The notes: a model not told the origin generated them from the letters alone. 30,090 nucleotides of DNA from an uncultured bacterium (GCA_964593455.1 CAZQHK010000042.1:1-30090), one strand, 5' to 3'; counted from the first letter of the stretch, positions 14,975-15,110 are shown. Numbers and translations are program-made.

Positions 14975-15110
14975 ACCCCTCACTCTCTGCGCTTCTTGCT
15001 TGAGGGTGGGACCACCAAGCTTTCGCTACACCTCCATATTCGCACTCACGTCTGGCAGACAAAATCAGCCTTCGCCCGGGTAAAAATCTCAATCTATCGT
15101 CTCTCTACCC
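14975..15110 (+). repeat. long copy (about 135 bp) of the dispersed intergenic repeat; its inverted partner is at 28212-28352
   Basis: cctcactctctgcgcttcttgcttgagggtgggaccacc…ctacacctccatattcgcactcac…cgcccgggtaaaaatctcaat aligns along its full length with the reverse complement of 28215-28350, at roughly 80% identity with several clustered substitutions. Confidence 0.6.

Follow-up and report, generated by a model that had tools for sequence, protein, structure and literature searches.

The window analysed here, 30,090 nt of DNA from an uncultured bacterium, carries two inverted copies, A and B, of an intergenic element. On balance, we regard them as copies of a lineage-restricted, non-coding and modular interspersed repeat, which would form a new family of the BOX/BIME/REP/Correia-like kind. 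This is an ordinary kind of feature, and our analysis does not support a riboswitch-like RNA or an inversion switch. A and B form by far the longest inverted repeat that a repeat finder returned for the window, with gapless arms of 98 nt (14996-15093 and 28240-28337) that are 83% complementary and 13,146 nt apart. BLAST of one copy against ~38 kb connected A and B with E = 1e-21, and a profile of four sequences gave the limits listed in the Table, B being scored at 28352-28239 on the minus strand. Repeat finder, BLAST, profile and alignment all recover both copies, and the ~135-bp inverted pair noticed in an earlier, sequence-only reading of this DNA is therefore real. In the alignment, similarity begins at CCTCACTYTCTG, crosses one 4-nt gap and stops at ATCTCAAT, with an identity of 81-83% over ~110 nt (88/108 positions, or 81%, with the gap); copy B has a 4-nt deletion in its head. 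Two 21-nt blocks, TTGCTTGAGGGTGGGACCACC and CGCCCGGGTAAAAATCTCAAT, are perfectly conserved and represent the longest exact matches, and both copies contain GGTGGgaCCACC and the terminal ATCTCAAT. Copy A runs from the head CCTCACTCTCTGCGCTTCTTGCTTGAGGGTGGG through the body to the tail ATCTCAAT and is unchanged in 10/10 contigs from other samples.

Both copies are located between convergent genes, as the earlier reading had stated. The spacer of A separates rlmN (stop codon 14898-14900) from a gene for an FMN_bind/Fer4_5 membrane protein (stop 15197), and that of B separates ligA (stop 28198) from an ORF of 183 aa with Gly-X-Y repeats, whose stop codon (28352-28354) directly abuts copy B. This ORF (window 28352-29373) has a short collagen-like Gly-X-Y run (GDKGDTGLQGLQGTKGDAGAKGD), is without a Pfam match and shares 4 nt with an upstream 157-aa CarboxypepD_reg-like ORF; the start of a 219-aa mechanical ORF at the same gene differs from the called start.

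The conserved part of the element is a head of 25-40 nt (CTCACTTTCTACGCTTCTTGCTTGAGGGYGGG) that is often paired with the short tail. We found at least 11 heads on both strands and in four intergenic spacers of ~48 kb of this genome, comprising the window and the next 18 kb along the same scaffold (ERZ23491172 scaffold_43). None of these many copies lies inside a called gene, so that the heads are restricted to extragenic DNA in this sequence. The pattern CTYACTYTCTNNGCTTCTTGCTTGA has three sites in the window (A, D and C) where none is expected by chance. A unit consists of a head, a variable body of 0 to ~130 nt and, in this species, the tail ATCTCAAT, whose ATCTCA looks like the opening bases of a further head. 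Units are found singly, in tandem or as head-to-tail-facing inverted pairs, and at least four bodies are combined with the head: those of the A/B and G types, the X/Y modules and a minimal form of head and tail only. Only A and B are full-length in the ~48 kb, and the nusA-infB operon stretch at the far end of this sequence is free of copies over its 10 kb.

Four of the sites in the Table (box D, G', the short fragment next to B and copy C) had been overlooked before. Box D lies 57 nt upstream of the head of copy A; in front of it, tail-like ATCTCA repeats (14904-14926) begin 4 nt past the rlmN stop codon. The inverted head G' starts ~20 nt after the FMN_bind/Fer4_5 stop codon, and together A and G' bound a unit of ~200 nt. 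The short inverted fragment touches the tail of B and lies 20 nt past the ligA stop codon. Copy C, in which CCTTACTTTCTGTGCTTCTTGCTTGAGG is followed after 18 nt by ATCTCAAT, is situated between the PMT_2 and MS-channel genes in antisense orientation to both and looks like an internally deleted unit in which both ends are retained. Four independent Logan contigs (k=31) all stop at window position 14952, between box D and A, and another one stops at 28332, inside the head of B. Breaks of this kind suggest variants within the population or additional copies of the head; cross-assembly of A and B is not indicated, as they have no 31-mer in common.

Table. Members of the repeat family and the larger units bounded by inverted heads. 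L numbers are our handles for the sequences compared; all other positions refer to the window.
Feature	Position	Strand	Evidence	Terminal inverted repeat	Folding z
Copy A, full-length element	14977..15093	+	profile E = 1.2e-35		
Copy B, full-length element	28239..28351	-	profile E = 1.4e-31		
Solo head box D (TCTCACTCTCTACGCTTCTTGCTTGATG)	14921..14948	+	pattern and HMM matches		
Inverted head G' (TTTTCTACGCTGTTCAGAGGGCGGGAGGATGAC), facing A	15135..15176	-	pattern search; weak profile match 15174-15142		
Short inverted head fragment (GCTTTCTACGCTCACTATTCA)	28219..28239	+	pattern searches		
Copy C, short head-plus-tail derivative	6246..6300	+	profile E = 4e-4; pattern, HMM, repeat finder		
DUF711/C11 repeat cluster	L048:7362-8100; L047:7923-8240; L021:2026-2260				
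Head E in DUF711 cluster (CCCACTTTCTACACTTCTTGCTTAG)					
F units in DUF711 cluster, n = 3 (CTTTCTACGCTGCTTGCTTACAC-ATCTCAAATCTCAAT)					
Inverted head G in DUF711 cluster (CTTTCTACGCTTTCTTGCTGGAGGGTGGGAGGTTGACG)					
A plus G' unit	14978..15176			~24/32 matches with gap	+0.7 (ssDNA)
B unit	28219..28351			partner only 16-21 nt	-0.3 (ssDNA)
F..G doublet	L048:7527-7674			11 + 6 bp	-2.9
E-X-G unit, TARA strain	L021				-0.5

Beyond the window, a repeat cluster of at least ~700 nt lies downstream of the DUF711 gene, between this gene and that of a C11 peptidase (scaffold coordinates ~36.17-37.0 kb). It contains head E, three F units that keep both ends after loss of the middle, and the inverted head G. 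The same cluster also contains X (GTCGAGCAAGCGCYTTGCGAAGCAACAGCGCMGCGAAGG) and Y (GGCGGGACGTCAAGACCTCGCTACTGGTCAATGCCGCGCTGATGTTTAGG...), two further repeated modules. Runs of N mark assembly gaps at this cluster in both scaffolds (scaffold_43 and scaffold_318). In a sister TARA strain the flanking genes are 91-96% identical and the site measures only ~170 nt, with the modules differently arranged. Composite end modules, variable internal modules and size variation between strains, the features of BOX and BIME elements, are thus all present. The C11 peptidase gene has a consensus TTGACA-17-TATAAT promoter, and the gene-nearest F unit stands directly in front of its -35 box.

Other repeats of the window were noted as well. 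A 24-nt inverted repeat (GGATACCCGGATAGGAGTAGTCAA / TTGACTGCTCCTATCCGGGTATCC; 18755-18778 and 18841-18864, 96% complementary, 62-nt spacer) lies just past two terminator-like hairpins of an M6 peptidase gene, overlaps the start of a 79-aa ORF and has no Rfam match. A direct repeat (25170-25450 and 25869-26149, spacing 699 nt, 74-77% identity) lies inside a gene of 483 aa whose product has two PCMT/methyltransferase domains, and it is an old internal domain duplication.

Full-length homologues of A and B occur in two related species, R1 (L022-L025 and L053) and R2 (L019, L020 and L049-L052, L049 being the same as L032), which we reached via protein homologues. These homologues, in L053 and L049, are 65-73% identical to A and B and occupy one orthologous site, the spacer upstream of an RseC_MucC-family gene. 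In both species the reverse complement of the element runs into the RseC-like gene, whose Shine-Dalgarno sequence AAGGAG and ATG start codon are inside the head box (...CAAGCAAGGAGCGTAGAAAGT-ATG). The positions of A and B in convergent spacers and of the R1 and R2 copies upstream of RseC are thus non-orthologous. Pairwise identity is 81% for A-B, 85% for R1-R2, 72-73% for A-R1 and A-R2, and 65-66% for B-R1 and B-R2, and 59/112 columns are invariant across the four copies. Between this species and R1, orthologous proteins show 51-89% identity, and four-fold degenerate sites, at 42%, are near saturation. An element identity of 65-73% against this background argues that the element is constrained or has spread later, rather than having descended vertically as neutral DNA. 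The 85% between R1 and R2 says little about constraint, since these two species are close (60-90% identity at four-fold sites).

In R2 the full-length homologue is followed by a partial second unit, a 26-nt partial duplication that is absent from R1. Together with the DUF711 cluster, this duplication shows that the repeat rearranges on the time-scale of strain divergence. R1 has further head-like boxes (CTTTCTACGC...) in intergenic spacers (L022:335, 3677 and 3804). Apart from one 16-nt exact match to the R2 head (TTACTTTCTACGCTCC; L019:3696-3711) inside a gene for an 1826-aa protein, which could be due to chance or be a head remnant within the gene, all R1 and R2 heads are intergenic. R1 also possesses a second repeated module of its own (GTTACTGAA...ATGTCCTAC; L022:360-400 and L022:3740-3770). 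In each of two spacers it follows head-like boxes at a distance of ~40 nt, which indicates that the relatives join a common head to different bodies. In the RseC spacer (L049:9755-10001, L053:9801-10001) a 40-nt stretch upstream of the element (ACGAGCACAAACCGCCACCTTCTGGTATGCTTATACTCAG) is identical in R1 and R2 and contains an extended -10-like TGcTTATACT. This stretch is probably the RseC promoter, in which case the reverse complement of the element would be a 5' leader.

Searches of large sequence collections returned a single match of interest, in R2. The 18-mer CTTGAGGGTGGGACCACC common to A and B gave five chance matches of only 18-19 nt in GTDB, in Actinobacteria and others, and CTYACTYTCTNNGCTTCTTGCTTGA gave zero matches in the JGI scan. 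With CTTTCTACGCTNCTTGCTT, 15 JGI contigs were returned, of which 14 are chance matches and one (L032) is a true full-length homologue; as the JGI contigs L023 and L025 carry CTTTCTACGCTNCTTGCTT and were not returned, the scanned collection is incomplete for this clade. Plasmid, phage and viral-contig collections contained no match to the repeat. Exact protein matches place the window at bases 1-30090 of metagenomic scaffolds from marine oxygen-deficient zones, for example scaffold_43 of ERZ23491172 (172,773 nt), and the window ends at a scaffold gap.

The earlier reading had offered a MITE- or REP-like mobile element as one possibility. What stands of it is the dispersed, non-coding intergenic repeat, with more members in the window, in the next 18 kb and in two relatives; a classical MITE is not demonstrated, given the missing target-site duplication, the weak terminal inverted repeats and the want of a strong hairpin. 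Comparison of the flanks by eye showed no target-site duplication at A, B, C, D, E or the R1 and R2 copies. A and B as bounded in that reading have no terminal inverted repeat, and judged by their folding z-scores neither has the highly base-paired structure of a MITE. Inverted heads do bound units of 135-200 nt (Table), and F..G is the only one of four such doublets with a significant hairpin fold. No transposase was found in the ~48 kb or in the loci of the relatives that we examined, no recombinase gene is called in the window or its flanks, and we found no empty site or presence/absence polymorphism for A and B among assemblies that represent one 99.9%-identical population. Ends of the IS200/IS605 type, which call for a constant target of 4-5 nt before the left end and hairpins at both ends, were rejected as the bases before the head vary (GACC, TTAA, CAAC, AGAT, TAAT). 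The defining structural features of MITEs and REPs are not demonstrated for this repeat.

A structured 3'-UTR RNA had been suggested as well, and this idea finds no support. Rfam gave nothing at gathering thresholds in the window, L048, L022 and L053 and only chance-level matches at E <= 10. Folding z-scores of A, B and C lie between -0.4 and +1.6 on either strand (sense: A -0.4, B -0.3; antisense: A +1.6, B +0.8) and are indistinguishable from those of shuffled sequences; whole spacers reach -1.6 to +0.4 and the RseC leaders -1.0 to +1.6, so that all these values fall between -1.6 and +1.6. RNAalifold detected no covariation on either strand of three diverged copies, nor did the set of four, which has low power. 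The covariation term for the three sequences is about zero or unfavourable, with 1-2 double changes and several broken pairs. The best recurrent stem pairs CC.CACTYTC with GAGGGTGGG across a 14-nt loop in 3/3 sequences and shows no compensatory changes. This stem (CACTYTC with GAGGGTG) comprises 9 bp including G-U pairs and has a conserved loop, and it is absent from the head variants E and F and from two R1 heads. The GGTGG/CCACC mini-hairpin, which had been pointed out before, keeps its stem in R1 and loses a pair (T-A to C.A) without compensation in R2. In the fold of the spacer RNA, G' pairs with the head of A over 8 + 10 bp (z = -1.6) and is unpaired as single-stranded DNA; the fragment at 28219-28239 pairs with an internal block of B in the single-stranded DNA fold.

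The block-wise conservation over 115 nt could instead reflect a cellular function. One way would be an RNA module that acts by base pairing, in which pyrimidine-rich heads in 3' UTRs (CUUUCUACGCUUCUUGCUU) pair with their purine-rich complement in 5' UTRs. This complement contains the Shine-Dalgarno-like AAGGAG/AGAAAG, and ribosome-binding regions such as that of RseC would be the targets. We consider such a module possible, although on the unlikely side. In both convergent spacers, every head comes soon after a stop codon, in the sense of the gene concerned (rlmN, ligA, the FMN_bind gene or the Gly-X-Y ORF), and the first heads past DUF711 behave likewise. The complement, for its part, precedes a start codon on the sense strand of three co-directional spacers. 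In the RseC spacers of R1 and R2 it includes the Shine-Dalgarno sequence and ATG of the gene, and another instance in R1 lies 8 nt upstream of the Shine-Dalgarno sequence of a VIT/VWA gene. Conservation of the element between species well above the level of synonymous sites would agree with RNA pairing, as would the head-bearing spacers without canonical intrinsic terminators. However, the pyrimidine strand is the sense strand in the DUF711-C11 spacer and at L022:335, whereas the purine strand is the sense strand at C, VIT and RseC; this mixed orientation to the flanking genes in co-directional spacers argues against a single transcribed functional strand. Furthermore, no promoter or terminator bounds a small RNA, and complementarity over 25-115 nt is expected of any repeat that is present in both orientations.

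Canonical intrinsic terminators follow other genes of the window (8541-8509 on the minus strand, 18579-18607 on the plus strand) and none was found in the head-bearing spacers, which are a small sample; this distribution is compatible with RNA pairing as well as with a DNA-binding function. Promoter readings of the element were rejected by eye. With TTGAGA of the tail or TTGCTT/TTGAGG of the head as -35 box, neither spacing nor a -10 box is conserved for sigma-70, and a sigma-54 promoter was discarded likewise. The plausible promoter with TGcTTATACT exists in R1 and R2 only and lies upstream of the element.

Alternatively, a lineage-specific protein could use the element as a DNA-level binding platform, with the head as recognition site; a regulator, a roadblock or a factor of the nucleoid or gyrase type would be examples. 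The half-sites CTTTCT and CTTCTT (CTTYCT) are 10 nt apart, about one helical turn, and the head is conserved as a sequence rather than as a structure, in either orientation and only between genes. The gene-nearest of the three F units adjoins the -35 box of the C11 peptidase promoter, and spacers between convergent genes are where the elements accumulate. BIMEs of E. coli in such spacers bind gyrase and IHF. Still, a platform of this sort seems quite unlikely to us: we identified no candidate binding protein, ~115 nt are conserved, which is far beyond a normal operator, many copies are degenerate, and their positions relative to promoters are heterogeneous.

RNA-RNA pairing or a common protein-binding network would make the head and the A/B body a lineage-specific regulatory vocabulary rather than selfish DNA, which we think unlikely. 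If it were true, pyrimidine heads in 3' UTRs would be matched by purine complements at the ribosome-binding sites of the RseC, VIT/VWA and MS-channel genes, and 65-73% identity over 115 nt despite saturated synonymous sites would be explained.

It is highly improbable that the element is a small gene for a protein, or the decayed remnant of a gene that was duplicated together with its neighbours. Mechanical ORFs of 69 aa (14963-15172, plus strand) and 34 aa (28233-28337, minus strand) run through the two copies in the same frame and encode similar peptides (LEGGTTKLSLHLHIRTHVW... and LEGGTTWLTLHLNVRTHLW...), so that the earlier statement that the element has no ORF calls for some qualification. 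Nevertheless, A and B differ in this open frame by 10 non-synonymous and 1 synonymous codons, the third codon position is the least variable (8:6:3 differences over the three positions), and gaps of 1 nt and 2 nt shift the frame in the R1 and R2 homologues, whose differences from each other in that frame are mostly non-synonymous. The non-synonymous excess and the frame shifts indicate that the element is not coding, and in this sense the earlier statement was right. A duplicated gene-end fragment, named earlier as the case that would speak against a mobile element, does not apply either, because the flanking genes are unrelated and members of the family are also found in the next 18 kb and in two relatives.

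A and B are inverted and 13,146 nt apart, yet a flip of the 13-kb segment that they enclose is scarcely credible: four assemblies (scaffold_43, scaffold_830 (L044), JAMYGB010041135.1 (L045) and scaffold_94 (L046)) span 6637-28556, are all collinear at 99.9% identity and do not show both orientations in the population, records of GCA_024711605.1 are also collinear on both sides, Pfam assignments reveal no invertase, integrase or recombinase among the called genes between and around the copies, and A and B, at only 81% identity, have no exact match longer than 21 nt. L044, L045 and L046 have no substitutions relative to the window in A, B, C and D.

For the modular interspersed repeat that we favour, copies would be made and rearranged at the DNA level, through either a head-recognizing recombinase or transposase, or gene conversion and slippage during replication. 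Only insertions between genes would be tolerated; a settled copy would be a passenger in a 3' or 5' untranslated region, with occasional co-option. The copy that provides the RseC-like gene of two relatives with its ribosome-binding site and start codon would be an example of such co-option. Small interspersed repeats are common in bacteria and almost undescribed in uncultured candidate lineages of oxygen-deficient marine waters. The family causes breaks and gaps at several points of the assemblies, which matters for the quality of MAGs, and as a mark of a small clade it could serve for strain typing. Since the palindromic or TIR/TSD hallmarks of REP and MITE families are undemonstrated here, its copying enzyme could reveal a different route of mobilisation.

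The closest parallels are found among several known systems. Like Correia/NEMIS elements of Neisseria, ERIC, RUP and Nezha, the repeat is a non-autonomous intergenic element of 100-200 nt, its deleted variants keep both ends, and it can give promoters or ribosome-binding sites to its neighbours. However, those elements have clear terminal inverted repeats of 20-30 bp, target-site duplications (TA for Correia) and strong hairpins, which are undemonstrated here. MIRUs of Mycobacterium are intergenic tandem units that overlap stop and start codons of the flanking genes. Copies of our repeat likewise abut or overlap a stop codon (B) or a start codon (RseC in R1 and R2) and form tandem head-to-tail units (D-A, and the two units in R2); MIRUs differ in being operon-oriented and in having small ORFs for translation coupling, whereas orientation is mixed and no ORF is conserved in our repeat. 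With REP, BIME and REPIN sequences it has in common an extragenic box of 25-40 nt that appears as singlets, as inverted doublets with a spacer of 70-130 nt and in clusters (PMC3116915, PMC3337134), is kept in related species, is frequent between convergent genes and includes degenerate singlets beside better-conserved doublets. In contrast to REPs, the head is not a GC-rich palindrome and forms at best a 9-bp stem with G-U pairs and a 14-nt loop, the body of the full-length A/B unit is asymmetric and conserved, and there is no RAYT in the sequence examined. BOX elements of Streptococcus pneumoniae and S. suis have stable stem-loops, reported terminal inverted repeats and target-site duplications, whereas our repeat shows no significant fold or target-site duplication; the host lineages are unrelated, and a sequence relationship is not expected. 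BOX elements are boxA-boxB(n)-boxC composites that are often co-transcribed with their neighbours (PMC3049150). Like them, the repeat is short, non-coding and intergenic, its end modules enclose variable internal modules, its size varies from strain to strain, it would often be transcribed along with adjacent genes, and it can contribute start codons or ORFs to them.
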